Below, in pieces: positions 3,488 to 42,259 of a stretch of DNA of 53,864 nucleotides. The stretch lies in IMG/VR virus record IMGVR_UViG_3300045988_098128, positions 1-53,864 of that record. The stretch is one strand, 5' to 3'. A model generated the notes under the pieces. It made no database searches. It was not told the origin of the DNA and was given only the letters and a program-made list of their open reading frames with translations. Source of the DNA: a virus. A program made the position numbers and the translations under genes. Positions within the stretch are counted from its first letter, which is position 1, and each line of letters starts with the position of its first letter.

Positions 3488-3526
3488 AAAAAGAGAGCAA
3501 GGAATCACTTCCCTGTTCTTTTCTAT
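3486..3526. terminator. bidirectional intrinsic terminator (about 90 percent identical to 40548-40586)
   Basis: An A-run is followed by the stem gagagcaaggaa/ttccctgttctt with loop tcac, then a T-rich run. It lies directly after the stop at 3487. Confidence 0.7.
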
Positions 3527-3687
3527 TTTGCGTGTCTTGCAATGCTTAGTACGGCTTTCTCCGAAAGTCCCGCTGTTCTGTCGGTCGCTGTGGCGAGAAC
3601 TGTTACAAGTCGCACAATCAGCTTTAGCCGTTCCTCGGAGTAGCTTTGTAGTATCTCTGCTATCTCGGTTATAATTTGTTCCTTCAT
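3523..3687 (-). CDS. possible small protein (54 aa, MKEQIITEIAEILQSYSEERLKLIVRL...)
   Basis: Not in the ORF track because it is under 60 aa. The ATG at 3687 is preceded by GAAGGGAAG. It ends at the bidirectional terminator. Confidence 0.35.
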   Translation of the reverse strand: MKEQIITEIAEILQSYSEERLKLIVRLVTVLATATDRTAGLSEKAVLSIARHAK

Positions 3688-3769
3688 TTTGCACTTCCCT
3701 TCTTTATTCTGCTGTCGATTATATCACACGAACGCTTGTTTGTAAATAGCTTTTGTGAAGAAAATGTGT

Positions 3770-3886
3770 TTATTTGAGAAGTTTTTTATTTTTCTCGAGA
3801 AGTTTCGCGAAGCGCAAAAGAAGGATTATGCCTTTGTCGTTTAGTTTGCTTACGATATTTGCTAACTCAAATCTGTAATGCTTCAT
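3770..3886 (-). CDS. possible small protein (38 aa, MKHYRFELANIVSKLNDKGIILLLRFAKLLEKNKKLLK)
   Basis: Not in the ORF track. The ATG at 3886 is preceded by GAAGGGACAGACAG. Its helical character resembles the ORF at 3523..3687. Confidence 0.25.
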   Translation of the reverse strand: MKHYRFELANIVSKLNDKGIILLLRFAKLLEKNKKLLK

Positions 3887-4069
3887 CTGTCTGTCCCTTC
3901 TTTGTTGGAAATGTTTTCTAATTCAAGTGTAACATGCTTTTCGAGAGAAGACAATAGCCGAGTTTAATATTCCGTATTAAAATCAGATACAAAAATATAC
4001 TGGTTTTACATTCGACAAATTTATGCACTTATCGGCGCACATTCAATGTTGACAAACATTTAACAACGT

Positions 4070-4104
4070 AAAAGAGCACCTCATCTAGAAGAGTGCTCTT
4101 TTAC
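4070..4104 (-). terminator. intrinsic terminator ending the ncRNA candidate
   Basis: Stem aagagcac/gtgctctt is flanked by an A-run and a T-run, so it can work in either direction. Confidence 0.65.
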
Positions 4105-4458
4105 ACAGCAAATTCATAAACAAAGGAGGAACATGACAGAAGTCACGAAAGGAAACGGAGGGATTTGAACCCTCAAAGGTAGCCTTTTGACCGCCATACA
4201 ACCGATTCGCCGTTCCCGTGCGCGACAGCCCTTGCGAACCGCCGCCAACAAATGAGAAAACAAGACCGAAAGGAATACGGGCATGTTAATTCGCGCCTTG
4301 CGGAGTTGAACCGCCGTTGTACACGTTATGGTATCGTCTGCCGTTGAACGTATAGGCGCGATATCCGAGCGGTCGCACAGCGGAATCATCCGCGTTGCTC
4401 GGATATTTTAAAAGAAAGGAGTTTCAATATGAAGAACAACCAGAGTTCATTGTTCCAC
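4105..4458 (-). ncRNA. candidate structured ncRNA (about 350-385 nt) with two tRNA-like minihelix plus T-arm modules
   Basis: A consensus promoter lies upstream and a terminator downstream, and there is no credible ORF. Module H1 (4361-4406) is a 10-bp stem, atatccgagc/gctcggatat, with a nested hairpin. Module 4291-4361 has an 8-bp closing stem plus GCGG-TTCAACT-CCGC. Module 4151-4217 has a 7-bp closing stem plus GAGGG-TTCAAAT-CCCTC. Confidence 0.5.
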
Positions 4459-4464
4459 AACAAT

Positions 4465-4493
4465 ATTATAGCACGTTTAAACGCGTTTGTCAA
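4465..4493 (-). promoter_or_regulatory. consensus sigma-A-type promoter driving the ncRNA candidate
   Basis: On the minus strand: TTGACA (4493-4488), a 17-nt spacer, then TATAAT (4470-4465). Confidence 0.6.
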
Positions 4494-4518
4494 CATATCT
4501 GTCAACGTTTAGTAACGT

Positions 4519-5136
4519 TTAATGTTTACTAAACAGCTTTGCAAACCAATTCAACTTACGCTTGTTACCTTGTTCAACATCGGATTCGTTTGTTGTCTCA
4601 ACGTTATTCTCGTCTGCGGCAGTGCTTTTGCCAACTGTGGCGTTCTGGGAGACGTTCTGAGGTGCATTAACAAACTTGTCAGATTCACTGACCGCATGGA
4701 GCGTTTGCGCCTGCACAGCGGTTTGTAGCGCGTTGTGGGCGAGTTCGGCAAACTTGCTGGCGTAGTCTGCAATCTGCCCATCACGTTCGTCAAGCATTTC
4801 CGTCTTCTGTTTCAGCTCGTCTGCCTGTCTGTCAATTATACCTCTGAGAGCTTCTACAGTCTCCTGTAGGCTCTTTATTGCTTCTGCGTTCAAATATTCG
4901 CGTCCTTCGTTTTCTACGCTCTCACAAGCCTGTGGTGCGTCACACACGTTTTCCGCAACTGCTTCTTGTTTTTTTGAGTTGCTATATAGTTTCAATGCAT
5001 CCTCGGAGATTTTTTTTACTCCGTCCTCGCTTGTCACTATATATTCTTCAAGACCGTTCCGCTTAATTCTTTGATATACCGATTGACTTGTCACTCCGGC
5101 TCTGTCGGCGAATTCGGCTATTGTGAGGTATTTCAT
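4519..5136 (-). CDS. replication-associated HTH (MerR/excisionase-like N-terminus) coiled-coil protein
   Basis: The N-terminus is YLTIAEFADRAGVTSQSVYQRIKRNGL. ATGA overlap with the Rep gene gives the same rep-orfX arrangement as theta plasmids of Firmicutes. Confidence 0.7.
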   Translation of the reverse strand: MKYLTIAEFADRAGVTSQSVYQRIKRNGLEEYIVTSEDGVKKISEDALKLYSNSKKQEAVAENVCDAPQACESVENEGREYLNAEAIKSLQETVEALRGIIDRQADELKQKTEMLDERDGQIADYASKFAELAHNALQTAVQAQTLHAVSESDKFVNAPQNVSQNATVGKSTAADENNVETTNESDVEQGNKRKLNWFAKLFSKH

Positions 5137-5825
5137 GGATTGCTCCTTGCTTTTGTGATTGAGAATTTAATGTGAGTTATACTTCTTCCCGTCCGCGTCG
5201 GCTCATAGGCTACACGCAAATCACTAACGGCGTTAATTTCGTCAACGGCAGTGTCGATTACGCGCTTGCGAAAATCAATAAAATCCGAATAACCGCCTAT
5301 TTGCATAAGCGTTTTCAAATTTTCAACAGAAACGGTATACTCGCCTATATTGGCATAGCTTTTAAGTATCTCGTACAAACGTATAGTGTGTTTCGATTCC
5401 ATGTTTAACACGGTTTGAAGCTGATATGCCGTATACGATTCTTTGAGTTCGAGCAAATAAGGCGCTAACCGCTTGTCAAGCTGAATCCTAACCCGCGATT
5501 CATTTTCGTATATTTCCGCACCCGAAATCCATGCGCATAGCTTTCTTACATTTCCGTCCACTATCCAGAATGACTTGTCGCGTATGGATTGCAGCGTTTC
5601 ACGGAGATTCTTGTAATTCTTGCCGTTTTGAGTAATTCCAAGTGATTCACACATATCTTGCAGATTGAAATCATACTCATAAAGTTCTTTATCATCGGGT
5701 TTTACCTTGCTTATCGTATACAATATGACTTTTTGCTCCTGTGTTGTCATTCCGTATCTTGACTTTTGAATTAGTTCGTTCTTTTTGACAACCAAATTAT
5801 TAATTTTTTTATCGCTATTTTCCAT
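5133..5825 (-). CDS. Rep_3 (RepB-type) plasmid replication initiator
   Basis: The N-terminal pattern NNLVVKKNELIQKSRYGMTTQEQKVILYTISKV... is typical of the Rep_3 family. The iterons lie immediately upstream. The start was set to the ATG at 5825, which follows AAGGGAG. Confidence 0.85.
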   Translation of the reverse strand: MENSDKKINNLVVKKNELIQKSRYGMTTQEQKVILYTISKVKPDDKELYEYDFNLQDMCESLGITQNGKNYKNLRETLQSIRDKSFWIVDGNVRKLCAWISGAEIYENESRVRIQLDKRLAPYLLELKESYTAYQLQTVLNMESKHTIRLYEILKSYANIGEYTVSVENLKTLMQIGGYSDFIDFRKRVIDTAVDEINAVSDLRVAYEPTRTGRSITHIKFSITKARSNP

Positions 5826-5840
5826 GGTTACTCCCTTCAT

Positions 5841-5884
5841 GTTGAAAACTCTGTGTAAAACCTTGTTGAAAACCTTGTTGAAAA
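5841..5884. repeat. short direct repeats (gttgaaaac x3, ccttgttgaaaa x2) between the rep start and the iterons
   Basis: Read directly: gttgaaaactctgtgtaaaaccttgttgaaaaccttgttgaaaac. Confidence 0.8.
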
Positions 5885-5926
5885 CTGCAAAAGAACAATT
5901 TTCCCGTGTGTTTTCTCGGTTTTACA

Positions 5927-6038
5927 GTTACCAAATGTCCTGTTTATCGTTACCAAGTGTCCTGTTTTACAGTTACCAAATGTCCTGCTATCCGTTACCA
6001 AATGTCCTGTTTATCGTTACTAAGTGTCCTGTTTAACA
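5927..6038. repeat. five tandem 22-23 bp iterons (GTTACCAARTGTCCTGYTWWHC)
   Basis: Copies lie at 5927, 5949, 5972, 5994 and 6016, contiguous and in direct orientation, upstream of the Rep_3 gene. Confidence 0.9.
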
Positions 6039-6115: not shown

Positions 6116-6389
6116 ACTAAAGCGCATAAATTTTGCCTGTTGAAAACTCAAAAGCGAATACGCGGTTAGTAAGCAGGAAGAGAAAATTTTTACCATATTG
6201 TAATTTTAAGCTATCTGTCATGCCTTGTCAAGATGTTTTCTAAATATTGACAAACGTCTAAATAAACATTTTTCAACGCATTGGTAAACTGATTTACAAA
6301 CATATTGACAGGGAAGTGTATTTTAGGCAAATGCCGAAAATGGTTTGTTGAACAGCATTTGTAAACTTAAAGAAAGATTGACAAACCTA

Positions 6390-6632: not shown

Positions 6633-6660
6633 AGATTTACTCGTGTTTACACAACATTTG

Positions 6661-7269
6661 TCAATGTTTCTCAACTATGCATTCATAGTATTTTGCGAGT
6701 TTATCTTCTCCCGCATCCTCATCGTCAAGGAAAGCGTGAGCCATTGCCGCATAGAAATCAACAGAGTTGAGATTAAACTCCTTGCCTATTTTGTAGTAAT
6801 CGGAGTACATCATGTTAATTGCAGCGTAAAATTCGGCAGGGTCGCAGTCATAGCCGTGCTGCCGTCTCACCTGCTCCGTCTGCTCAAAATTCCAGTGTCT
6901 CCCGGTCGAGCCATCGGCGTTTTTCATTTTCTCCGTCCACTCGTCCGCGTCCTCACGAGTAAGCTTGTCGTGCTTTTTCCCACGTTTGCCGTAGCTCTCA
7001 CGCTCACGCCCGTCATAATCGCGGCGGTCTCTCATGTCGTACTCACCGTAGTAGTCGCGCTTGCCGTAGCCGTCGTACTCGTCATAGTCAGGCTGACGGC
7101 GGCGGTCATAATCGGGGTATCTGTCCTCGCGTCTATCGTATCTGTCATAATCGCGCGGTCTATGGTCACGGTCATAGTCACGTTCTTGTCTGTCGTAGCC
7201 GCCGTATTCACTGCGCTTGTCCTTGCCGCTTGACATCATGAGCAGCCAGTTTGGATTCATCCTCTTCAT
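6661..7269 (-). CDS. hypothetical protein with about 100 aa of Arg/Asp/Tyr dipeptide repeats and a globular C-terminal domain
   Basis: A YDRQERDYDRDHRPRDYDRYDRREDRYPDYDRRRQPDYDEYDGYGKRDYYGEYDMRDRRDYDGRERE tract is followed by ...NMMYSDYYKIGKEF...AHAFLDDEDAGEDKLAKYY. ATGA overlap with the upstream gene. Confidence 0.7.
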   Translation of the reverse strand: MKRMNPNWLLMMSSGKDKRSEYGGYDRQERDYDRDHRPRDYDRYDRREDRYPDYDRRRQPDYDEYDGYGKRDYYGEYDMRDRRDYDGRERESYGKRGKKHDKLTREDADEWTEKMKNADGSTGRHWNFEQTEQVRRQHGYDCDPAEFYAAINMMYSDYYKIGKEFNLNSVDFYAAMAHAFLDDEDAGEDKLAKYYECIVEKH

Positions 7270-10352: not shown

Positions 10353-11558
10353 TTAAAACGCAATAATGTTGTTGACCGCACGACTGCCGCCCGTTGACCG
10401 TCTCTTGATTCCCTCGACACGGATGTACGAGCCGCCGCCGTCAAGAGCGATAACGTCCTCAAAGCCTTCGCCTTGTATCTTCTTCCATACCTCGCCGGAC
10501 TTGATGTAGTTTGCCGAGGTGGTTTTGAGAGTGAGTACCCATATCTCGCCGCTTCTGATGCCGAGCATGTTTCTCGACGTGCCGTAGGTGGTGGAGCTGT
10601 CCCAGCCCTCCGCGTTAACATAGCTCATGTCGACAGGCTTTTTGCCGACCACAACAGGCACTCCGCTGACGGCGTACTTGATTCCCGACGGGATTTTGTC
10701 AACACGTTCGATTGTCGGCTTGCCCGAGTACGGCACGAGCAGTGTTGACACCTTTTTGCCCGCAAACTGCTTTGTCGCGTTGTCGGCGATACTGTACACA
10801 AGGTGGTTGCCGTAGACGTGTTCAAAAAGATTTCCCTTAGCCGCCGCCGGAATTTCCTTGATATCGCACGCGAGATTAGCGACGGGGAGCGTGTACACCT
10901 CGCCGTCCTCCGAGCGGTAATTTGCGAAGAAGCCGCCGTTGATGTATCTCTTCACTCCGCCCTTGCGCTTGTCCGCGTCATGATAGATTATCGCAAAGTT
11001 TTTAGCGCGGGTGTATGTGATGCCGTCCTTGTCGTAGCTGTCCTTGATGTTGGTATTGCCTTTTTTGCCGGACACATCGAGACTGATGTTTGTGTTCACG
11101 TTTTTTTCTCCTTTTGATGTGGATTTGATGTCGTACTGTCCCCACTCGTTAGGTATGCCGAGATATGGTGTCGGGTCTACGGATTCACCGTTTTTGCGGA
11201 CCTCAAAATGACAATGTGAGCCGAAGGAATATCCCGTGTTGCCCTCGATTCCTACTACGTCCCCCGCCTTGACCTTTTGTCCAACTTTGACTTTTCGCGC
11301 CGCCATGTGACACATGAATATCTTAAGTCCGTCCGGTGTGTCAATGCGAATGTAGTTGCCCCACTGCCATGTAAGATTAGACTTGTCCGTGATGATTGTC
11401 GACGAGCCGATAACTCCGTCACAAGGCGCAACAAGCGTTTTGTCCGTACCGCTGAGGTCTACGCCTTTGTGGTAGTCGCGCTGTCCGTTGAGCGTGCGCC
11501 AGCCAAAGTGTGATGTGAGCGTGACCTTGCCGCTCTTGTAAGGCAGATTCATTTTCAC
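10353..11558 (-). CDS. endolysin: N-terminal M23 peptidase plus C-terminal phosphodiester-glycosidase (NAGPA/DUF2233)-like domain
   Basis: M23 signature motifs HKGVDL and GNTGYSFGSHCHFEV. The C-terminal part has INGGFF... and ALDGGGS motifs. Confidence 0.75.
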   Translation of the reverse strand: MKMNLPYKSGKVTLTSHFGWRTLNGQRDYHKGVDLSGTDKTLVAPCDGVIGSSTIITDKSNLTWQWGNYIRIDTPDGLKIFMCHMAARKVKVGQKVKAGDVVGIEGNTGYSFGSHCHFEVRKNGESVDPTPYLGIPNEWGQYDIKSTSKGEKNVNTNISLDVSGKKGNTNIKDSYDKDGITYTRAKNFAIIYHDADKRKGGVKRYINGGFFANYRSEDGEVYTLPVANLACDIKEIPAAAKGNLFEHVYGNHLVYSIADNATKQFAGKKVSTLLVPYSGKPTIERVDKIPSGIKYAVSGVPVVVGKKPVDMSYVNAEGWDSSTTYGTSRNMLGIRSGEIWVLTLKTTSANYIKSGEVWKKIQGEGFEDVIALDGGGSYIRVEGIKRRSTGGSRAVNNIIAF

Positions 11559-24912: not shown

Positions 24913-25104
24913 TCATTTCTTTTTGCGTGTGTTAGTTGTTGTCTTCGGCTTTTCTTCCGCTACAACAGTCTTTTCTTTCTCTTCGGTTATCACTCCGTGC
25001 GCCGAAAGTTCCGCAGTATCGGAGGAAGATATCTCAAACTTTTCTCCCGCATTGTGCCACACACCACGGTAATTAACCGAATATTTAGGTGTGAGGTAAA
25101 TCAT
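24913..25104 (-). CDS. hypothetical small protein (63 aa)
   Basis: ORF directly after the capsid gene. Confidence 0.45.
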   Translation of the reverse strand: MIYLTPKYSVNYRGVWHNAGEKFEISSSDTAELSAHGVITEEKEKTVVAEEKPKTTTNTRKKK

Positions 25105-26171
25105 CAGGCAGTTACCTTGAGAGTTACAACTTCGTTCATTCTCTCGTAGGAAGGAAGAACGATTTCGGAAGCGTAGATATTTGTGACGGCGGGATGAATT
25201 TGTACATTCTGTGTAATTGTGATGCCTGTATCAACAATGCTGACTTCTGTGTTCGCGCCGGAAATAAGTCTCGCTTCCTCGGGAGTTGTGCCGTACCAAG
25301 TTCTGCCCAGTGTACCTTCGGGAATGAATGTAACATATCCGTCGGGAACGAATGATTTGGTTGCGCCGCTTTCGTTCTTATACTTCTTCGAGTAAACAAT
25401 AGGTCTGATTCCGGTTTCGTTTTCGATAACATCAGAAGCTCTTGCGCCTGTTACATAGCTCTGAACAACGCCCGATGTTGAAATAATGGAGTTCTTAACA
25501 GCGGAGGTGGCTTTCAGAAGGTTGAATGTTGCGGAGGACATAATGGCATATCTTATTTCAGAACCTGAAACGTCAGCTGCCTTGTTCTTCATATCCTCGA
25601 AGTCCTTAATCGGGTCCGCCGTGGAAGCCGCTGACCAAAGAGCTGTAGAGGTAAGTGCAGAATAGTTGTTAGTCTTCCATGTATCGTTGGGGTCGTAGTC
25701 GTATTCATAGGCTACACCGTTCGCTTTTATTGAAATAGCCATATCGCCACTTTCGGGGAAAAGAAGAGACATTCTCATACGTTCAGAGACAACGTGAGCG
25801 CCGTCAATGAGGTCTCTTAAATAGTCAAAAGTGCGATTAAGTATAGCCAGTGCGTAAGGTTCATTAGAATCTCGCACCTGAAGGAATTCCTGAATGTCAT
25901 TTTCAGAGAGCTTATGAGCTGCGCGGAAAAAAGGCATTTCTGTTTCGAATCTTGAAAGTTCGCCAATCTCACGATAAGTTGCCTGAGCGTCAAAAGCTGA
26001 AGGAGCGAGAGAAACAGGAAGTCCACCGTATCCTTTTACCCAAGCAAGACGCAGTCCTGTCTTCTTTTCGGCAGGGAAAAGTCCTTCGCCGAAATATGGA
26101 ATTCTGTTAGAGGCTGTCTGCTCATAGTTGGCTGCAATTACGCGCGGCGTGATAAATTCGCTAAGATTCAT
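25104..26171 (-). CDS. major capsid protein (phage capsid E-like)
   Basis: 355 aa, located after the scaffold. The N-terminal pattern ...NRIPYFGEGLFPAEKKTGLRLAWVKG... is present. Confidence 0.8.
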   Translation of the reverse strand: MNLSEFITPRVIAANYEQTASNRIPYFGEGLFPAEKKTGLRLAWVKGYGGLPVSLAPSAFDAQATYREIGELSRFETEMPFFRAAHKLSENDIQEFLQVRDSNEPYALAILNRTFDYLRDLIDGAHVVSERMRMSLLFPESGDMAISIKANGVAYEYDYDPNDTWKTNNYSALTSTALWSAASTADPIKDFEDMKNKAADVSGSEIRYAIMSSATFNLLKATSAVKNSIISTSGVVQSYVTGARASDVIENETGIRPIVYSKKYKNESGATKSFVPDGYVTFIPEGTLGRTWYGTTPEEARLISGANTEVSIVDTGITITQNVQIHPAVTNIYASEIVLPSYERMNEVVTLKVTA

Positions 26172-27255: not shown

Positions 27256-27906
27256 TTATTTTCTTTCTATAGGTGCGAGGTAACATCTGCAATGCCAGTG
27301 TTGCTTGTCGGGCGCTTCGTTAATAGGGAATATTTCTCCGTCAAGCGGCTTGCAAATCTCGCACACCTTTTCGTCCTCTTGCGTCACCCACATCACATAC
27401 TCAACTCCCGCGTCCTTGTATGCTCTGAGTACCGTCTCGTCAGTCACTATATCGGCGTATTGGGCGGTCATATTCGACCATAGGCTTACTGCACGTCTCC
27501 ACTCGCTGTTAACGTCCGAACGCGTCCTGAGAGCTTCTGAAAGCCTGTCGCGCTTTCTTAAGACTTCGTTCTCGTATTCGTACTTTGTTACGGAATTCGG
27601 AGACGAGAGGACAGTCTCAACAAGGGTCTTTTTTGCTTTTGCGGAAATTTTTCCGATGTCCTTGTAACCGTATCGGCTTACTTCTTCGCCTATTTCTTCA
27701 TATATGGCAAAGGCAAGTTCTAACATCGTGTCCCGTAAATCGCTGTCAAGGTTCTTGTAAAGCGTCGCGACGGTCTTTATAATGTGAAGCTCGTCGAATT
27801 TAGCAAGTCTTATTGAGGACTTAGCTTTTTCAAACCGCCGTATTGTCTTCTTCCGCAGTATTTCTATCGCCCTGTCCGTCGTTATGTACCGTTCTTGCAT
27901 TCTCAA
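27256..27906 (-). CDS. head morphogenesis protein (SPP1 gp7 / Mu F-like)
   Basis: The C-terminal motif VMWVTQEDEKVCEICKPLDGEIF...HWHCRCYLAPI is present. Confidence 0.8.
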   Translation of the reverse strand: MRMQERYITTDRAIEILRKKTIRRFEKAKSSIRLAKFDELHIIKTVATLYKNLDSDLRDTMLELAFAIYEEIGEEVSRYGYKDIGKISAKAKKTLVETVLSSPNSVTKYEYENEVLRKRDRLSEALRTRSDVNSEWRRAVSLWSNMTAQYADIVTDETVLRAYKDAGVEYVMWVTQEDEKVCEICKPLDGEIFPINEAPDKQHWHCRCYLAPIERK

Positions 27907-29353
27907 GCTCCTTTTCTAAGCTGTTTTCAAGTTCGGACTGTGCTTCTTCATACCACTCCATACCGCGCTGGTATGCATTCTCTACATCTGTAAACAAGCC
28001 GGAAATGTCGTAAGCGTCGCGCGGATGAACCTTTTCGTTGTTGAGCAGTTCGCAAAGAACCTGTGCTTTCGATTGAATGTCGGTGAGGTTTTCGCGGGTA
28101 AACTGAATCTTAACATCGTTCGGGTCGAGGTCGAGAATGCCCTTGTCTTTGTAGATTTTGAGAATCAGCTTCAAAATCTCTCTTTCCGAACGCGCAAATA
28201 GCTTTTCAGTGTCGTTTGCTCGCGCGGAAGCATCCTGCCAACCGTTGCGGAATCTCGTTCCCATGCCCGTGTCCGCGGCAGAAGAGTTTCCGGCTCTTGT
28301 CGGCATACCCGTTATTTCGTCAATGTAATCGTACAGCGCGTCTATTTCCGTCTGAACGCCAGTCTGAGAGATTTCAGAGGATATGCGGTAAACCTTTGCT
28401 TCCGTTCCCTGACCGCTTCTGATACAGATACACTGACCGCCCCTTGCAAGCTCCTTGTATGTGTTCTCGTCGATTTCGCAGTTTTGGAACACGTCATAGG
28501 CGTTCACAAAGTCAACAACATTGTCAACGCGAGCGGATTCAAGAGTGTTTATCATATTGATAGGCGAGAGAACCGTCTCAAACGCTCCTAAACGAGCTTC
28601 ATTCAGCGGATATTCCACTATCGGAACGCGCCCGAAGTCGTAAGCAAGCCAGTCTACAACGTCGTTGCCCTTTACGGTGTATCTTCCTTCCGGCACATAA
28701 ACGTAGTAAATGCGGTTGTCATCCTCGTCATACTGTTTCAGCACACCCGCAAGAGGTTTTCTGCCGATACCCGAAGAGTAGATAACAAACGCTTCTCTCG
28801 GGTCGAGTGAGTAAAGCGCGGCGGGGCTTCCGTCTTTTTCGTTGTCTGGGTCGGGAAGAACCATTCGTGGCTCAACTCCGCATATGTGCATCCAGTCGGA
28901 ACACTCTTTATCCTTCGATTCTTTGCCTTCGGAAGTCATAAGAACGTTCAAATAAGCTACCTTGTCGGATACGTCTTCTTTTCCGTTCGCCGCTACATAC
29001 TGAATGGGAGAGCTGAGAAAAAACGAGGATTTAAAAGTGACTATCTTGTTTGGAAGGTTGACAGTGACCTTGTTGTTGTTGTCGGGTCTTACAGTCTTGT
29101 CTTTATAGCGGATATCCATTATTCCGCGATAAACGTCATATAAGTAATTTATTTCCGCGACATTTGCGCTGTCAAAGCCGAGCGAATCTTCAAGCACGGA
29201 CACAACGTTGTCGGCGGTTATTTTTTGTTTGTTCGTTAGTATCTTTCGCCGACCATGAAGGCTATCACAAGTAGTAAGGCGAACAATATCATTTTCAAGC
29301 ACGTGGAAAACCTCCGTGTAAACAAAAATAGGGGCTACCCGTATGTTTTCCAT
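27830..29353 (-). CDS. portal protein
   Basis: 507 aa, downstream of TerL and upstream of the gp7-like gene. Confidence 0.8.
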   Translation of the reverse strand: MENIRVAPIFVYTEVFHVLENDIVRLTTCDSLHGRRKILTNKQKITADNVVSVLEDSLGFDSANVAEINYLYDVYRGIMDIRYKDKTVRPDNNNKVTVNLPNKIVTFKSSFFLSSPIQYVAANGKEDVSDKVAYLNVLMTSEGKESKDKECSDWMHICGVEPRMVLPDPDNEKDGSPAALYSLDPREAFVIYSSGIGRKPLAGVLKQYDEDDNRIYYVYVPEGRYTVKGNDVVDWLAYDFGRVPIVEYPLNEARLGAFETVLSPINMINTLESARVDNVVDFVNAYDVFQNCEIDENTYKELARGGQCICIRSGQGTEAKVYRISSEISQTGVQTEIDALYDYIDEITGMPTRAGNSSAADTGMGTRFRNGWQDASARANDTEKLFARSEREILKLILKIYKDKGILDLDPNDVKIQFTRENLTDIQSKAQVLCELLNNEKVHPRDAYDISGLFTDVENAYQRGMEWYEEAQSELENSLEKELENARTVHNDGQGDRNTAEEDNTAV

Positions 29354-29391
29354 ACGAATAGCCCCTATCGGCTCTTACTGTAACCCGATTG

Positions 29392-29574
29392 TTACAGCGT
29401 TTTTATAGTGTATTTAGCTTTTCTCGAAGCGGTTATTTCAAGTATAGTGACCTCTTCGCGCGATTTCTTAATTTTAACGTCATTGCCGCGTTCCAAAATC
29501 TCGTTGATTATGAGAAGCGCGTCTTCTTTGACATACTTGTGACGGTGCGCGTGTTTCTCTTCTTCCATAGCCAC
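29392..29574 (-). CDS. hypothetical small protein (60 aa)
   Basis: ORF fills the gap between TerL and the portal gene. Confidence 0.45.
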   Translation of the reverse strand: MAMEEEKHAHRHKYVKEDALLIINEILERGNDVKIKKSREEVTILEITASRKAKYTIKTL

Positions 29575-29575
29575 C

Positions 29576-31282
29576 TCAATAAGGTCTTTGTATTACTCTT
29601 ACCGTCTGCGTCTCAAACGATTGAATGAAGTCTGCAAGCATTGAGAATGCATCGGGTACATCGTCATGTGCGTTTCTTCCCGCCATAGTATAACTGCAAA
29701 GCATACCGAGCGCGCGTTTATACTCTTTGTTGTTCTTTATAACACTATTGTCCTTGAAAAGGAAATGCTCTTTGACAAATGGAGAATCAACTATAATTCG
29801 CGTAGCCTTGTTTGCTGTCGAATATTTTGTAGTGATTCTTGTTATGCCGCCGCGCGTTTTTACCTCTTTTTGAACCTTTTCCGCGATTTTTCCACCCGCA
29901 GAGTTTGATTCAAAACGGCTCAATTTGACTTTGTGCCGTAAAAGAATCTCGACAAGCCTTGTTTCAACTATTTCGGGATTATTGTTGTCGCAGATTATTT
30001 CTTCGATGTAGAAGTCATTGCCGTACTGGTAAGCAATAGGCATTACGCAGTAGTCCGCCCCTTTGTCCTTTGTGTCGCAAACCGATATGATAGCATCCGG
30101 CGAATCCGAGGGAAGTTCAAAATAACGTCTGAGTTCGTCCTCGTTGTAGAGAAGTCCCTCGCGCTCTATAGGTTGATTCATGAACAAAGCTCGCCACGAG
30201 CAGTCGTCAAGGTTGTTTTTCATGTCCTCGAAGTATTCCTTATCAAAGCCGACACCATAGCGGTAATTGAAATTGCTTTCGCCGTCCTCGTCAACCGCAG
30301 GCATCACCAAAAACTGAGCTTTCGGAGAATCCGCGTACATTGTTTGCAGTCTCCCTATAGGGTCATGCACCGACCATCTTGTAGCAAGGTGCAATTCTTT
30401 GCAGTTTAGTTTCTTTCTCGACTTCAAATCGTTCGTGTAAGCCGTCCAGAGCTTGTCAAGTCGTTCAATGCTCAATGCTTCCTCAATACCCGACACAAGG
30501 TCATCAGCGGTCAGAAGTTTTTCACAACGCGTAGCACCCGTAAGGGAAGCGCCTATAGCACGGCAGGTGAGCGACGAAAATCGGTGTTTCTTGCCGAGGT
30601 CTATCGTCTGTTCCTTTGCATTGGTTATAATTGTGCCTGCCGCAGGATACACGTCGTGCCATAAATAATCAGGGTCTGACAGAATGCTGTTTACGCCGTC
30701 ATATATTGAGTTAGTGAGCGTTCCCGAATGTCCCGAAGCAAGGGAACAGCTGTCGGGAAACGCGCCTATCATCATCGAATGCAGGAAAATTTCGAGAGTT
30801 GACTTTCCCGTTCCAGGCGGAAGAGAGATTGATAATATGTCAAGTTCTCCGTCCACAAGCTTTTGCATTGCACGGCAGACAGGTTCGAGCTGCTTTCTTC
30901 TCGGTATCCAGAATCTTTTCTCAGGCTCTCGCTGAAGTTCTATATACTGCATGTAGCTGTCGAGCCTTAATCCTTGCGCTTCAAGCAAAAGCACAGCCTT
31001 AAAAAGAGAATTCGCGTCTTTCGATTTATTTTGTATAATTCGCTCCGTGCAATATCTCTTCAAAGTCTCCGAATACCGCCACTTTTCAGCACAGTTATTC
31101 ATCGAAGACAGCACCGAATACAATGCCGTATAATGCTTCATGTTTTCAGGTTCGGCTTTGATGTGAGAGAGAATATTGTCCGCTACGTCAAGATAACGCT
31201 TGTCTGTATGCTCACCTGCCATTATCTCCGCTTGCAGTGCTTCCATTCTCGCCCACCTCTTCCATTCGCCTGAAATAATCAC
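29576..31282 (-). CDS. terL: terminase large subunit
   Basis: Walker A motif SLPPGTGKST and a size of about 560 aa. The true start may be an internal Met (31246 or 31222), which would reduce the overlap with the upstream ORF. Confidence 0.85.
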   Translation of the reverse strand: MIISGEWKRWARMEALQAEIMAGEHTDKRYLDVADNILSHIKAEPENMKHYTALYSVLSSMNNCAEKWRYSETLKRYCTERIIQNKSKDANSLFKAVLLLEAQGLRLDSYMQYIELQREPEKRFWIPRRKQLEPVCRAMQKLVDGELDILSISLPPGTGKSTLEIFLHSMMIGAFPDSCSLASGHSGTLTNSIYDGVNSILSDPDYLWHDVYPAAGTIITNAKEQTIDLGKKHRFSSLTCRAIGASLTGATRCEKLLTADDLVSGIEEALSIERLDKLWTAYTNDLKSRKKLNCKELHLATRWSVHDPIGRLQTMYADSPKAQFLVMPAVDEDGESNFNYRYGVGFDKEYFEDMKNNLDDCSWRALFMNQPIEREGLLYNEDELRRYFELPSDSPDAIISVCDTKDKGADYCVMPIAYQYGNDFYIEEIICDNNNPEIVETRLVEILLRHKVKLSRFESNSAGGKIAEKVQKEVKTRGGITRITTKYSTANKATRIIVDSPFVKEHFLFKDNSVIKNNKEYKRALGMLCSYTMAGRNAHDDVPDAFSMLADFIQSFETQTVRVIQRPY

Positions 31283-33425: not shown

Positions 33426-33683
33426 ATGAAATACTACACACAGATGATTATCTCTACAGCCAGCTACACTACCGAGCTTGACCAGCCGCAGGAAATCGAA
33501 AAAAAGGAATTTACCCAAAAAAACGTCAATGACTGGTGCGAGCAGTACGCCGCCGACACTGGTGACAGCTCTGACATTGACTGCCTCGGCTTTGTCCTCA
33601 CCGACGAGAACGAAAACGAGATAGAAACGCTCTATTACCGAGAGCGTCGCGCCGATTATCACGGCTCACACAAAACCCACTAA
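33426..33683 (+). CDS. hypothetical acidic protein (85 aa)
   Basis: The RBS AAGGAGAA lies upstream. It is the first ORF after the promoter. Confidence 0.6.
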   Translation: MKYYTQMIISTASYTTELDQPQEIEKKEFTQKNVNDWCEQYAADTGDSSDIDCLGFVLTDENENEIETLYYRERRADYHGSHKTH

Positions 33684-33768
33684 GCAGAGTGACGGGAGCA
33701 ATCCCGTTAATGCGGTCCGGCAGACGGTCACAAACCCCGAAAGCCGAAAAGAAAGGAATTATCAAAAA

Positions 33769-35508: not shown

Positions 35509-35616
35509 GAAGTCAATTAATAAAAAAGCCGACCGAGCGGCTATAAATAGGGTTTAGGCTCGGTGCGTTCCCTCTTCGGAGGGAGGTATCTAACAAAATC
35601 GAAAGGTGAATCAAAA

Positions 35617-39581: not shown

Positions 39582-39705
39582 TTGTTGTCACATCCTTTCG
39601 GATAAAGGGTATCACAAAATCAATTCTCAGTCAAGAGCTTAGACAAAAGTTTATCAACAAAACGCAAAAAAACGTAAAAAAATACCGCAAAAACCCCGCT
39701 GTTAC

Positions 39706-39817
39706 GAGAAAAGAAAAAAGAGAGAGAAAGAAGAAAGAAGAAAAAGAAAGAAAAGAACCAAAAGAAAGAATAAAGAAGAAAGAAGAAATAGAGAGATAAA
39801 AGAAAAGAGTAAGGGGG
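39706..39817. repeat. about 110-bp purine (GA) tract ending in a G-run
   Basis: gagaaaagaaaaaagagagagaaagaagaaagaagaaaaagaaag...aagagtaaggggg, with only a handful of pyrimidines. Confidence 0.9.
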
Positions 39818-39884
39818 CTCTATAGCCGCCCCCCAGCCCCGGCACTGTTCAGCAGAGCTGAACGACTTATAAGAGAAAAGAAGA

Positions 39885-39990
39885 CAAGTATAACTATATA
39901 TTATAGTATTGACTATAGATTTAAGTACATACCATCAAGTATAGTATATCTAAATTTTAAGTATTAATTATAGTATATCTTTATATAATA
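39885..39990. repeat. AT-rich block with short direct repeats
   Basis: tatagtatatct occurs at 39940 and 39969. tataactatat at 39889 also occurs at 32627. Confidence 0.7.
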
Positions 39991-40004
39991 TACGCAGTTT
40001 TCAA

Positions 40005-40105
40005 TATTTTTCTTTTTTCGCCGTCGCGTCGCCTTTCTGCGTTTCCGCTTTTACCGCTTGTTTTTCGTCCGATTGCGTTCTCGCACCCTCGCGTCCGTTT
40101 AAAAC
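40005..40105 (-). repeat. purine-rich (on the minus strand) element R3, related to R1/R2
   Basis: The reverse complement reads ...aagcggaaacgcagaaaggcgacgcgacggcgaaaaaag. Compare ggcgaggcgacggaatag in R1. Confidence 0.45.
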
Positions 40106-40267
40106 GCTCCACAACGTGCCAGAACCATCTGTGGTGCGTGTTGTTTGCTTTTTAGTGATTTACCTGTCTTGAATAATAACACGCTTTAAACGGCTTCTGT
40201 GACGTTCAGAACGCGTTCCGTCAAATCAGTTTCCCGCAAAAGTTTTACCGGATAGCGAACTTTGACA

Positions 40268-40333
40268 GTCAAACGAATGTCAATTTGACGTCAAACGGAA
40301 GTCAAATTGAATTCAATCGGAATTCAAACGATG
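40268..40333. repeat. three tandem 22-bp repeats (GTCAAACGRAWGTCAAWTTGA-like)
   Basis: gtcaaacgaatgtcaatttgac / gtcaaacggaagtcaaattgaa / ttcaatcggaattcaaacgatg. Confidence 0.75.
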
Positions 40334-40362
40334 TTTAACCGCTAATTAACAGTGATTTAACT

Positions 40363-40430
40363 GTTACAGTAACGTTACAGTAACAGTTACAGTAACGTTA
40401 CAGTAACAGTTACACTAACGTTACAGAAAC
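40363..40430. repeat. six tandem 11-bp palindromic units GTTAC-A-GTAAC (putative origin or operator array)
   Basis: Copies at 40363, 40374, 40386, 40397, 40409 (gttacactaac) and 40420 (gttacagaaac). Confidence 0.9.
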
Positions 40431-40512
40431 ACCGTTCCAAGAACGTTCCAAAGACGTTTTAAAAACAGAAAGTCACCGTGACCGCTTAATCTGACAGTCA
40501 GACAATTTTCAG

Positions 40513-40548
40513 CCTTACAGAAGTCTTACAACCGTCTTACAGTAAGAC
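40513..40548. repeat. three CTTACA boxes at 11-bp spacing, the last inside the perfect palindrome GTCTTACAGTAAGAC
   Basis: Boxes at 40514, 40525 and 40536. The palindrome spans 40534-40548. Confidence 0.8.
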
Positions 40549-40586
40549 AAAAAAGAGCAAGGAATCGCTTCCCTGCTCTTTTTTAT
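40548..40586 (-). terminator. intrinsic terminator of the repressor gene (duplicate of 3486-3526)
   Basis: Stem agagcaaggaa/ttccctgctct with loop tcgc, flanked by an A-run and a T-run. Confidence 0.7.
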
Positions 40587-41002
40587 TTGCTTTGTTCTTT
40601 TGGTTCGCCACCGCCTGCTTGTTTTCGCCATTTCGCGACGTTCAAAGCGAATTTCTCTATCACTTTCCAGTCTTCCGGCTCAAGTTCGGCAAGTGCCATC
40701 ACAAATTGCTTCACAAAAGATTCATCGGATTCATTCACTAATTTTCCGAACGCATCTATCAATGCATCTTCTGTGTCTTTCGGGCGGAACATATCTCCCT
40801 TGCCCGTTCTAAGCCAATTTTCGGCAACACCGTATGTATTGCATATATCGGAGATAACTCTATCAGTGACACCTATTCTGCCTATCTCTATATTGCCTAA
40901 GTTCGAACGCGATATGTTAATTCCCGCCGCGAACTCTTCCTGTGTTATCTTGCAGGCTTTTCTGACAGCGCGGATTCTTTCACTGATTTTATCTTCGCTC
41001 AT
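40583..41002 (-). CDS. CI-like XRE-family HTH repressor (no S24 peptidase domain)
   Basis: Contains ITQEEFAAGINISRSNLGNIEIGRIGVTDRVISDICNTYGV. It is divergent from the early operon. The RBS AAAGGAG lies 9 nt upstream. Confidence 0.8.
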   Translation of the reverse strand: MSEDKISERIRAVRKACKITQEEFAAGINISRSNLGNIEIGRIGVTDRVISDICNTYGVAENWLRTGKGDMFRPKDTEDALIDAFGKLVNESDESFVKQFVMALAELEPEDWKVIEKFALNVAKWRKQAGGGEPKEQSK

Positions 41003-41029
41003 TGATGTATCAACTCCTTTCCGTACTTA

Positions 41030-41058
41030 AATTATACCATCATTGCAATTGTTTGTCA
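41030..41058 (-). promoter_or_regulatory. consensus promoter for the repressor (TTGACA-17-TATAAT)
   Basis: Read on the minus strand. Spacing verified. Confidence 0.65.
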
Positions 41059-41103
41059 ATGACATTGGATAAAAATATTTTTTTATTTTTTGCTCGAAAA
41101 TGC

Positions 41104-41132
41104 TTGACAAGCGCATTTAAGAGTGATATAAT
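41104..41132 (+). promoter_or_regulatory. consensus early promoter (TTGACA-17-TATAAT)
   Basis: Spacing verified. Its -35 box lies 45 bp from the -35 box of the repressor promoter. Confidence 0.7.
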
Positions 41133-41185
41133 GATTACAGCAAACAAATTTAAGGCTTTCACAAACATTTTATACGGAGGTAAAA

Positions 41186-41365: not shown

Positions 41366-41973
41366 ACGAAGCGCAGATTTTCAAAAACCTCAAAGACATT
41401 CAGTTCGATGAGACTTTTGGAAGAGAAAAAAGCATCGGAGTAATCTACGCCGTGGAATATGGCGATTTGGTAAAAATCGGATGCACAAGAAACCCTAAAA
41501 TCAGATTGTTTGCTTTGAAGTCGCAATGCGAAAAGTATTCCAATAAAAGGTTTGGCAGAGTGCTGATATCCGAATTTCATTGTGGATATAGCGGAACCGA
41601 ACATGAGCTACATGCTGCTTTTTCCCCCAAAAGAATAACCGACACCGAATTGTTTACCGTGACTTTGGAAGAAGTACAAAAAGCTATAAAACAAATGCCT
41701 GACCTAAAAGGCAAACAAGCGGCAGTAAAGAAGCCCACACCCGAAAAAAATAAGAACACAGATCACGATGAAGTACGGCATTCATCAATGACAGAAAAAC
41801 AGCGAGAACAGGCTCGAAGAATTGCTGAAACAATAAAGGACGCATCCGAGTATCAAAAGAGGCTTATAACGGCATTCGCTGAGGGACTTATACATGGAAT
41901 AGAAATCACCAAGCAAGCTAACGAAACGATTAATTCCATACTCGCAGAAAAGGATGAATCCGACAATGAGTAG
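41362..41973 (+). CDS. T5orf172/Mug113 (GIY-YIG superfamily) domain protein
   Basis: Contains the motif GVIYAVEYGDLVKIGCTRNPKIRLFALKS. Confidence 0.65.
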   Translation: MNEAQIFKNLKDIQFDETFGREKSIGVIYAVEYGDLVKIGCTRNPKIRLFALKSQCEKYSNKRFGRVLISEFHCGYSGTEHELHAAFSPKRITDTELFTVTLEEVQKAIKQMPDLKGKQAAVKKPTPEKNKNTDHDEVRHSSMTEKQREQARRIAETIKDASEYQKRLITAFAEGLIHGIEITKQANETINSILAEKDESDNE

Positions 41974-42259
41974 CCCCTACAAATTCAGCGAGTGGACATA
42001 CGTTGATAAGGCAATCGCCGAAAATCGCCACGTATGCACCCGCTGTCACAGCGATATCACATCAGACCGCATCGGAGAACCCGTCCTCATCACATACGAC
42101 GGAGACAATATCGAGTATATCTGCCCCGACTGCACAGCAGACTTCTTCTTCTACTCCCTCGGCGAGACGTTGGAAGCACTGAACTGCGACCCCGTAGACA
42201 CCGTGCAGGACGAAGAAGACCGAAAGGAGCGGATGAAGAATGCCGAGATACCTTTATGA
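41966..42259 (+). CDS. hypothetical zinc-ribbon protein
   Basis: Contains CTRCHS...CPDC. The start was trimmed to the ATG at 41966. Confidence 0.55.
   Translation: MSSPYKFSEWTYVDKAIAENRHVCTRCHSDITSDRIGEPVLITYDGDNIEYICPDCTADFFFYSLGETLEALNCDPVDTVQDEEDRKERMKNAEIPL

Follow-up and report, generated by a model that had tools for sequence, protein, structure and literature searches.

The 53,864-nucleotide virus record IMGVR_UViG_3300045988_098128, analysed here over its whole length (hereafter the window), is the genome of a siphovirus-type phage of about 54 kb. On the minus strand, between positions 4493 and 4068, it carries a conserved, non-coding RNA gene in which two tRNA-shaped modules unable to decode (modules 2 and 3) are set among hairpins and CU-rich segments. 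The cassette is moron-like, with a sigma-70 promoter and a terminator of its own. The reading we favour, at a probability of about one in two, is that it constitutes an independent RNA gene of an uncultivated gut phage clade, whose transcript is matured into two tRNA mimics, with module 2 as the effector. tRNA-like RNAs, transfer-messenger RNAs (tmRNAs) reduced to their tRNA-like domain (TLD) and tRNA-linked small RNAs are known kinds of molecules. We did not find in the literature the combination seen here, namely two non-decoding cloverleaves, one of them bearing the alanine pair, and a mimic exchangeable for a genuine tRNA; the cassette looks like an undescribed family of phage tRNA mimics. 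A previous sequence-only reading had proposed a promoter-to-terminator structured RNA at this place and not a protein gene, and this central claim is borne out.

The promoter (4465-4493, minus strand) matches the sigma-70 consensus at 12 of 12 positions, with TTGACA at 4493-4488, a spacer of 17 nt, a TG extended -10 and TATAAT at 4470-4465, and its predicted start lies near 4458. Both hexamers are invariant in alignment A1, and equivalent consensus promoters stand at the same distance before the cassette in the two other families described below (B and C, the window type being family A). At the opposite end lies an intrinsic terminator (4068-4104, minus strand) whose stem is a perfect 12-bp inverted repeat (4104-4093 with 4079-4068, 100% complementary), followed by a U run; a pattern scanner missed it because its loop is 13 nt long. 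In L014 this stem carries compensatory changes (GAGCGU/ACGCUC), and computed folds of the transcripts also show the terminator. Promoter and terminator had both been called from the letters alone, and both hold up. The predicted transcript is about 390 nt long, from about 4458 to 4069. Its 5' half comprises a hairpin, a CU-rich stretch, a second hairpin, module 2 and a spacer; its 3' half comprises a GNRA hairpin, module 3, a further hairpin, a CCUCC stretch and the terminator (hairpins are numbered hp1 to hp4 in this order). Since the T-loop consensus UUCRANY occurs on the minus strand only, and since 10 of the 39 pairs tested in hp3, module 3 and hp4 are G·U, which the plus strand would turn into A·C mismatches, the RNA is assigned to the minus strand.

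Several repeats surround this unit. AAACG/GTTTAAAC repeats occur in and upstream of the RNA promoter, and in families A and C AAACG and GTTTAAA(C) motifs extend across the 3' end of the neighbouring helix-turn-helix (HTH) gene and the RNA promoter (window 4474-4520; L100 3540-3630, at least six copies; L102 3540-3625). These motifs are likely regulator-binding sites, and the regulator is perhaps the adjacent 205-aa HTH protein itself. In addition, a perfect 12-nt inverted repeat, ATGTTGACAAAC, flanks the cassette (4046-4057 and 4485-4496). One of its arms holds the -35 hexamer, and near-copies lie upstream of rep at 6244-6256, 6371-6386 and 6654-6669; the repeat may be a shared promoter/operator module, or may mark the boundaries of the cassette.

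Curated phage and plasmid collections contained no sequence relative of the cassette. Scans by DNA pattern brought up families A and B alone from the viral, metagenome and genome collections, and family C was found through distant homologues (40-55% identity) of the HTH protein. Family A was recovered from 15 contigs of IMG/VR and about a dozen of metagenomes, as well as from a single genome bin that carries the label Eubacteriales, with identities ranging from 80 to 98.5%; the host probably belongs to the Clostridia. Conservation was measured against L014, the most divergent member of this family: 56% of the third-codon positions of the adjacent gene are identical, versus 94% of module 2, 92% of the leader, 100% of the hp2 stems and 85% of module 3. 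Family B comprises six loci, in which module 2 is 95.6% identical inside an otherwise unalignable cassette. There, the cassette begins with a consensus promoter that bears an operator and diverges from the gene of an XRE-type repressor; it has elements of its own: a 5' hairpin, a CCUCC stretch, a second hairpin, a spacer and an 11-bp hairpin. The slot of module 3 is occupied by a genuine tRNA-Gln(UUG), called by ARAGORN and scoring 59.7 bits with the Rfam tRNA model, and the cassette ends where this tRNA ends. The tRNA-Gln has no encoded CCA and shares a transcription unit with module 2, and must itself be processed. Family B phages differ in the sequences that flank the cassette, and hardly at all between its -10 hexamer and the 3' end of the tRNA. 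In family C, where the cassette follows the rep-HTH operon as it does in family A, the order of elements is kept, hp1, hp2, hp3 and hp4 are all swapped for unrelated hairpins, and the third arms of both modules are rebuilt. Family C transcripts fold at z-scores of -4.9 and -5.7, and their minimum-energy structures show both modules as four-arm cloverleaves.

Within family A, the cassettes are mosaic: types of hp1, hp2 tip, module 2, module 3 and trailer are recombined in alignment A2 (window and L001-L096). L004, for instance, joins a type II hp2 tip to type I modules, and L100 joins the 5' part of family C to a family A trailer.

Both modules fold as four-arm cloverleaf-like structures. The sequence-only reading had rightly recognised two tRNA-like modules, but its statement that neither reaches a full cloverleaf did not survive the comparison of homologues, in which the helices of the hairpins and of the third arms are backed by compensatory changes. 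In each module, as in canonical tRNAs (RF00005), an acceptor of 7 bp stacks on a T stem of 5 bp, whose 7-nt loop reads UUCRANY. The predicted D-like loop contains a GG, as tRNA D loops do, which may form an elbow with the T loop. Lack of an encoded CCA, common to modules 2 and 3, is likewise found in many Firmicute tRNAs. The difference lies in the anticodon stem-loop, which is absent from both modules: an arm of 7-10 bp in module 3 and of 3-4 bp in module 2 takes its place, and since this arm is short or capped by a tetraloop, the modules cannot decode. Such an arrangement is more than a chance pattern. The combination of a T arm and a perfect 7-bp acceptor closure is found only at modules 2 and 3 in the whole 53.9-kb window, and in 858 kb of other DNA, from phages and metagenomes, the only such modules that escaped a tRNA call were the homologues of these two, plus two others, one being a lambdoid-phage element and one lying in a tRNA cluster.

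Standard tools do not register these modules as tRNAs. Under default settings ARAGORN reports 0 tRNA genes and no tmRNA in the window. Its relaxed settings yield a cloverleaf for module 2 in which one loop, of 6 nt, is abnormal, and the anticodons then proposed, Tyr(gta) and Leu(caa), are broken in L085 and contradicted by covariation. Genuine tRNAs were rejected on these grounds; both modules also lack a conserved anticodon and the anticodon arm of 5 bp and 7 loop nucleotides (U33, purine 37) that would present it. The only tmRNA call appears when the settings are very relaxed; it falls on the opposite strand and is spurious. A tag reading frame with a resume codon was not found, though a TLD-only form could do without one. 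Rfam yields no gathering-level match to the window RNA, and its E-value mode returns only weak tRNA-flavoured local matches of at most 27 bits. The mascRNA/MEN-beta model (RF01684) reaches 17 bits, for a gathering score of 42.5.

Module 2 (4292-4360, minus strand) is a 69-nt cloverleaf supported by acceptor closure, T arm, covariation and fold. Its acceptor has 7 bp (CGCGCCU/AGGCGCG, closure 7/7) with C3-G70; an eighth pair, proposed at first, is not conserved. The D arm CGUU/GACG, whose loop is CAACGGCA in the window and (C/U)AACGG(G)(C/U)A across variants, is 92% paired with no compensatory change and faces a competing helix. Next come a short third arm, UAC/GUA, with an 8-nt loop (CAUAACGU), and a 4-nt linker; across variants this arm has 3-4 bp and a variable loop, CANAAYGY. 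The T arm is GGCGG-UUCAACU-CCGCA, in which the sequence-only reading had correctly described GCGG-UUCAACU-CCGC, and its pair 49:65, a G·A in the window, is replaced by U-A or G-C in other variants. There is neither an anticodon loop nor an encoded CCA. The cloverleaf model pairs 89.3% of cells, with a covariation of 0.139 versus 0.062 in shuffles (reached in 0 of 500), and its compensatory pairs lie in the third arm, where A-U and C-G become G-C and A-U, and in the T stem, where G-C becomes A-U or G-U. The ACGUU/AACGU arm first proposed for this module does pair in 95% of cells; its changes are all one-sided, whereas the rival D arm plus third arm has compensatory support. A model with a UACGU/GUGUA stem and GG/CC (86.3% paired) fits families A and B and was rejected as its interior helices break in family C.

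Module 3 (4151-4217, minus strand) is a 67-nt cloverleaf identified by its pairing, its compensatory changes and its T arm. The 7-bp acceptor GGGAACG/CGUUUCC, which includes G3·U70, and the T arm GAGGG-UUCAAAU-CCCUC are present as the earlier reading had them. Between the two lie a D-like arm, GCGA-AUCGG-UUGU, 100% paired with one-sided changes only, a third arm of 7 bp with an AAAA tetraloop, and a UUU linker. The discriminator is U (4150), followed by UU, and no CCA is encoded. Across families, 97.9% of cells are paired and four pairs change in a compensatory manner, all in the third arm. Acceptor, D-like arm and T arm are the same in all 10 distinct variants. The third arm changes both in length, from 7 bp under an AANA tetraloop (family A) to 9-10 bp under a hexaloop (family C), and in sequence, the tips being AAAA, AACA, AAUA, or UAAUAA and UUAUAA. 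Taken together, hp3, module 3 and hp4 have 98.6% of cells paired versus 42-53% in slid controls, with four pairs changed on both sides and a covariation above that of 499 of 500 shuffles.

Over its last 24 nt, module 3 matches the 3' end of a genuine phage tRNA-Ser(GCU) at every position. This identity, together with the real tRNA occupying the slot in family B, would fit modules that are functionless remnants of a decaying phage tRNA cluster, and pseudo-tRNAs are frequent in such clusters. We consider this origin very improbable as a full account: the modules are far more conserved than neutral sites, compensatory changes maintain their helices, and the architecture persists after complete replacement of the hairpins.

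A second feature of module 3 is the G3·U70 pair, kept in 10 of 10 variants. This pair is the principal identity element of alanyl-tRNA synthetase (AlaRS), and confers alanine acceptance when transplanted into another tRNA (PMC9976931). It raises the idea, rather unlikely in our view, that module 3 is an anticodon-less alanine-accepting mimic resembling the tmRNA TLD, which would be charged by AlaRS or would titrate SmpB or AlaRS, the outcome being interference with host ribosome rescue. The acceptor is of the expected kind (G1-C72, G2-C71, G3·U70), and the tRNA-Ser(GCU) that shares its 3' strand has A3-U70 instead. Among the 23 distinct phage tRNAs of the fetched loci, only tRNA-Ala has G·U at 3:70. 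The frozen acceptor, D-like arm and T arm beside a freely varying third arm point the same way. On the other hand, the discriminator is U and not A73, and pair 4:69 is A-U and not G-C, both being secondary determinants of bacterial AlaRS (PMC9976931). Family B does without module 3. Finally, because the whole acceptor is invariant, special selection on the G·U pair cannot be separated from selection on its surroundings.

There is a precedent for such a mimic: in mycobacteriophage DS6A the tmRNA is reduced to its TLD, and a similar molecule inhibits tmRNA (PMC4131195). We located this TLD-only gene at 28478-28556 (+) of JN698994 (L109), in the gap between gp33 and gp34, where the GenBank record has no annotation and where default ARAGORN misses it. 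Like module 3, it is phage-encoded, about 70-80 nt long, without an anticodon, and has G3·U70, a T arm and an interior closed by a helix. As a control it aligns with the Rfam tmRNA model (RF00023) end to end (model positions 1-374, 34.7 bits, below the 47-bit gathering score), whereas module 3 reaches 10-13 bits, through the T arm alone. On the strength of this comparison, module 3 is not a member of the tmRNA family; it also lacks the conserved 5' D-loop motif, the GGAC before the T arm and the ACCA of tmRNAs, and has a discriminator U. It differs further from the DS6A molecule, for which a decoy role against SmpB and tmRNA has been described (PMC4131195), in lying within a longer multi-element transcript beside a second, unrelated mimic.

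The segments around the modules are conserved in their own way. Hairpin hp1 (4433-4456, minus strand; GGAACAAU/GUUGUUCU, 8 bp, 98% of cells paired) shows five pairs that change one-sidedly, always to a standard pair (A-U to G-U, U-G to C-G). The CU-rich leader that follows (4407-4430, minus strand; core AACUCCUUUCUUUU at 4423-4410) resembles the anti-Shine-Dalgarno at the 16S 3' end; it is 92-96% identical, versus 56% at third-codon positions of the neighbouring gene, and families B and C also have a YUCCUY motif at this position. Hairpin hp2 (4361-4406, minus strand; AUAUCCGAGC/GCUCGGAUAU, 99% paired) has the 10-bp stem already noted in the sequence-only reading. Its stems are invariant and three unrelated sequences occur at its variable tip; hp1 and hp2 change only in pair-preserving ways, and a hairpin of another sequence stands at the hp2 position in families B and C. 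The spacer after module 2 (4246-4291, minus strand) contains the conserved motif UUCCUUUCGG (4275-4266) and UUGUUUUCUCAUU. It leads to hp3 (4222-4245, minus strand), which has 10 bp, a GCAA (GNRA) tetraloop and 100% pairing, with one pair changed on both sides and four on one side; hp3 ends 4 nt before module 3, and unrelated long hairpins take its position in families B and C. After module 3 come hp4 (4132-4147, minus strand; CGUGAC-UUCU-GUCAUG, 98% paired), with one compensatory A-U to G-C change in the alignment and GCAGC-UUCG-GCUGC in family C, and the CU-rich trailer (4105-4131, minus strand), whose core, UUCCUCCUUUG (4131-4121), is conserved.

These CU-rich motifs, resembling the 16S 3' end, are clearly under selection, and they underlie a serious rival to the preferred reading, which we hold as a tentative second possibility. 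In it, the transcript is a tRNA-punctuated precursor whose CU-rich segments are the effectors, the modules serving mainly as cutting signals for RNases P and Z; the freed RNAs, each with a protective 3' hairpin, would repress translation at ribosome-binding sites. In each inter-module segment, an unpaired YUCCUY or CCUCC motif does precede a stable hairpin, and the latter stops just before the next module. The leader is as conserved as module 2, the spacer motif UYCCUUUCG is kept in four cassette types (families A, B, C1 and C2) despite differing surroundings, and the CCUCC/CCACC core of the trailer survives changes in flanks and spacing (L014, L085, L106, L108, L102 and L104). Replacement of the 3' module by a real tRNA is also what would be expected for a generic processing signal. 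However, a processing signal requires neither the near-invariant loops of module 2 nor the invariant acceptor of module 3. Moreover, when the CU-rich seeds were compared with 72 listed translation start regions of the phage, the best duplexes were no better than those of shuffled seeds.

A genome-wide duplex scan likewise gave no significant complementarity between exposed RNA segments and phage sites; the pairing partner sought at the suggestion of the sequence-only reading thus does not rise above background in this phage. We observed a single 13-nt perfect match, between 42216-42228 (+) and the spacer at 4273-4261 (AAGACCGAAAGGA with UCCUUUCGGUCUU). It falls inside the 3' end of a 101-aa gene (41954-42259), upstream of a possible 64-aa ORF, and is probably coincidental; its position within a coding region tells against the small-RNA precursor.

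The same results bear on an immunity or copy-control RNA of the P1/P7 c4, P4 CI or N15 type, a role that had been suggested from the sequence, in which a processed antisense RNA would pair with a nearby operon and block its translation or terminate its transcription. Several contextual features are suggestive: the phage is plasmid-like (Rep3 and iterons, no integrase among 76 ORFs); the cassette of families A and C follows the rep-HTH operon, with promoter-flanking repeats that look like protein-binding sites; and that of family B sits in a genetic switch region, divergent from the XRE-type repressor. Yet complementarity to phage sites or start regions stays at background. Antisense control of rep was considered in particular, as the RNA has a 34-nt, 71% inverted repeat with the rep start, and was rejected: relatives keep the RNA and lack this rep leader, so that the repeat does not track the RNA. 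In addition, the family B promoter is placed such that expression is predicted without repressor, the opposite of what an immunity RNA would show, and the switch region of the window itself (41031-41132) has no such cassette. We therefore regard this role as highly unlikely.

Neither strand of the interval bears the signature of a protein gene. The 91-aa sense ORF, dismissed as non-coding from the start, is broken in homologues. An antisense, plus-strand frame ending in ...RLAELNRRCTRYGIVCR is uninterrupted throughout family A, and in family B a good ribosome-binding site precedes it. Its start codon is ATG, TTG, GTG or missing, it has no ribosome-binding site in family A, and six of its eight substitutions are non-synonymous (hand count, alignments A2 and A6); the frame, with its ...YGIVCR end, stays open only because the underlying sequence barely changes. 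Two plus-strand mini-ORFs were also rejected, one behind the leader motif, whose ATG becomes ACG in many homologues, and one behind the trailer motif, whose GGAGG-to-ATG spacing varies from 3 to 9 nt. The nucleotide-level conservation of module 2, with little covariation within family A, could alternatively reflect a DNA site, either an origin or a phage attachment site (attP) that matches the 3' end of a tRNA of the host. Both were rejected: no integrase is found among the 76 ORFs and both acceptor strands are present, which an attP does not need; and the iterons lie elsewhere, upstream of rep (5840-6035). Furthermore, family C changes are paired substitutions that keep the helices, and the many G·U pairs favour a minus-strand RNA. 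A small protein gene or a DNA site is thus scarcely credible here.

We return to the preferred reading, a transcript matured into two tRNA mimics. Both modules have the geometry recognised by RNase P, RNase Z and the CCA-adding enzyme, which makes processing plausible. The transcript, self-contained and either early or separately regulated, would be cut by host RNase P on the 5' side of each module; as no CCA is encoded and U-rich sequence follows, RNase Z would be expected to cut after the discriminator, and the CCA-adding enzyme to complete the 3' ends. Maturation would yield two stable tRNA-shaped RNAs, each about 70 nt long, together with three CU-rich fragments capped by hairpins. As module 2 is nearly invariant, loops included, across otherwise rebuilt cassettes, we infer that it may be the conserved effector, a mimic or decoy binding a specific tRNA-recognising partner. 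The 3' slot is interchangeable, holding module 3 in families A and C and a genuine tRNA-Gln in family B.

The analysis establishes the gene along with its strand, architecture, conservation and non-coding character. Several points weigh against the mimic reading. Transcription, processing and stability of the RNA are predictions, as are its putative function and decoy role, and the partner of module 2 is postulated. The acceptor and T helices of both modules never vary, so that covariation is uninformative on them. For module 2 the compensatory changes derive essentially from one lineage split, A/B versus C, and thus represent few independent events, and the ACGUU/AACGU helix may compete with the cloverleaf. 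Furthermore, RNase P may be hindered in family A, where the pairing of hp2 extends to position -1 of module 2. No tRNA-related enzyme (RtcB, Ro60, CCA-adding enzyme or SmpB) is encoded in the window. Finally, the conserved CU-rich motifs are unexplained by a pure decoy model.

A bolder version of the mimic reading, which we find doubtful, is a phage "tRNA-mimic operon" combining module 3 as an alanine-accepting TLD analogue with module 2 as an elbow-and-acceptor decoy, the two jamming or hijacking host tRNA-recognising machinery. Module 3 would then have arisen independently of tmRNA from a tRNA-Ser-type gene, by one A3-to-G change and loss of the anticodon arm. Action would come early in infection, with SmpB and ribosome rescue, AlaRS, and defence toxins that target tRNAs by reading their acceptors as candidate targets.

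The genomic context is that of a phage with a plasmid-type replicon. A profile scan against Pfam identifies structural and lysis genes, all on the minus strand: an SPP1-type portal (27830-29353), the capsid (25104-26171), the terminase (29576-31282) and an M23 lysin (10353-11558). The cassette lies next to this replicon, as had been perceived from the sequence; the Rep3 initiator gene is at 5133-5840, and upstream of rep lie four 12-bp repeats (TGTTGAAAACCT, 5840-5885) and five 22-bp iterons (GTTACCAAATGTCCTGTTTATC, 5927-6035), and the region 5840-6035 is likely the replication origin. The nearest Rep3 relatives among sequenced phages are less than 32% identical. Between rep and the RNA is the gene of the 205-aa protein with an N-terminal excisionase-like HTH (4519-5136); the cassette lies directly downstream of it, on the same strand. 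The region 3527-4518 had been described as having no credible long ORF. This holds for the 91-aa frame, but 3527-3900 is not empty: two small conserved minus-strand genes with good ribosome-binding sites lie there, of 54 aa (3523-3687) and 38 aa (3770-3886). A promoter, TTTACA-17-TATAAT at 3746-3718, serves the two small genes of 3523-3886, and L053, a family B phage, encodes a homologue of the 38-aa product (..LNDKGIILLLRFAKLL..) at 7100-7200.

Other regions of the window have features of their own. A switch layout occurs at 40585-41135, with an XRE-type repressor-like gene on the minus strand (about 40585-41003) and back-to-back promoters, each matching 12 of 12 positions, at 41059-41031 (-) and 41104-41132 (+); the equivalent rightward promoter carries the RNA cassette in family B phages and not in the window. 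Next to it, about 1 kb without an ORF (39600-40580) contains a long purine tract with (AAAGAA)-type repeats near 39700-39810, AT-rich TATAGTAT repeats near 39880-39990, GTCAAA-type repeats near 40265-40310, tandem ACAGTAACGTT repeats near 40345-40425 and, at its end, a terminator-like hairpin near 40550-40585. A role as second origin, partition site or packaging site is conceivable for this region. Rfam also identifies, at gathering level, a Pistol ribozyme (35527-35591, plus strand, 62.7 bits), a type-P5 twister ribozyme (33683-33740, plus strand, 38.1 bits) and a gut-2 RNA (29354-29401, minus strand, 51.1 bits); Pistol and Twister-P5 are also carried by the family B phages L053 and L078.

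The T hairpin of module 2, GCGG-UUCAACU-CCGC, recurs in other settings. In about 25 other viral contigs it is preceded by a conserved hairpin and closed by a covarying 5-bp stem (GCGUC/GACGC, GUGUC/GACAC, GCGAC/GUCGC); loci with this motif are L023, L024, L026-L029, L033, L036, L041, L043, L044, L046, L049-L051, L054, L055, L058, L061, L068 and L072-L074. Rfam gave no gathering-level match to it in L023 and L024, and it may be another undescribed phage RNA. In L031 (8229-8325; also in L037 and L063) the same hairpin lies within a closing stem of about 15 bp and is not called as a tRNA. This element stands between a putative Q-type antiterminator unit (ORF and terminator) and holin/lysin genes, in what looks like a lambdoid-type prophage.

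A full-text literature search returned no description of the RNA; a catalogue of 10,006 phage structured-RNA candidates (PMC10690425) may contain parts of it. Beyond tRNA and tmRNA, the closest known systems share some of its traits. The YrlA bacterial Y RNAs are described as non-coding RNAs that carry a tRNA-mimicking module and occur in some phages too (PMC4201824). The phage RNA lacks the long Ro-binding stem formed from the RNA termini, no Ro60 (rsr) or TROVE domain was found among the 76 window ORFs compared with Pfam, and Rfam gave no match to Y RNA. Eukaryotic systems provide a second comparison. The mascRNA/MEN-beta RNAs and the TMERs of murine gammaherpesvirus 68 (MHV68) are tRNA-like cloverleaves with a reduced anticodon loop, embedded in longer transcripts, where RNase P and RNase Z, by their cuts, set the ends of the RNAs next to them; TMERs are virus-encoded and not aminoacylated. 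These are nuclear RNAs with no sequence relationship to the phage RNA, and the likeness is functional and architectural only.

Among bacterial and phage systems, c4 of P1 and P7, the CI RNA of P4 and the N15 anti-immunity RNA are small RNAs of phage-plasmids, matured by RNase P from longer transcripts and sitting near immunity or replication functions. To our knowledge they have no canonical T loop, cloverleaf or acceptor geometry. They act by defined complementarity to the operon they control, whereas none was found for the phage RNA. Spacer and trailer small RNAs of tRNA operons, such as 3'ETS-leuZ, are released from tRNA precursors by the tRNA-processing machinery, and the stable RNAs C and D of T4 are tRNA-like molecules within the T4 tRNA cluster, of unknown function. 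The phage RNA differs from both in that its tRNA positions are held by non-decoding mimics, and in forming a dedicated, conserved cassette with its own promoter and terminator.

Phage tRNAs are now seen mainly as codon supplements or as replacements for tRNAs destroyed by defence systems. A conserved pair of non-decoding, tRNA-shaped modules, with an alanine pair in one mimic, near-invariance of the other and a real tRNA that can be swapped in, points to another use of the tRNA fold by DNA phages; decoy, charged non-ribosomal substrate and small-RNA punctuation are all conceivable roles for it. Because such elements are absent from Rfam and missed by standard tRNA finders, similar ones are probably under-counted in viromes.

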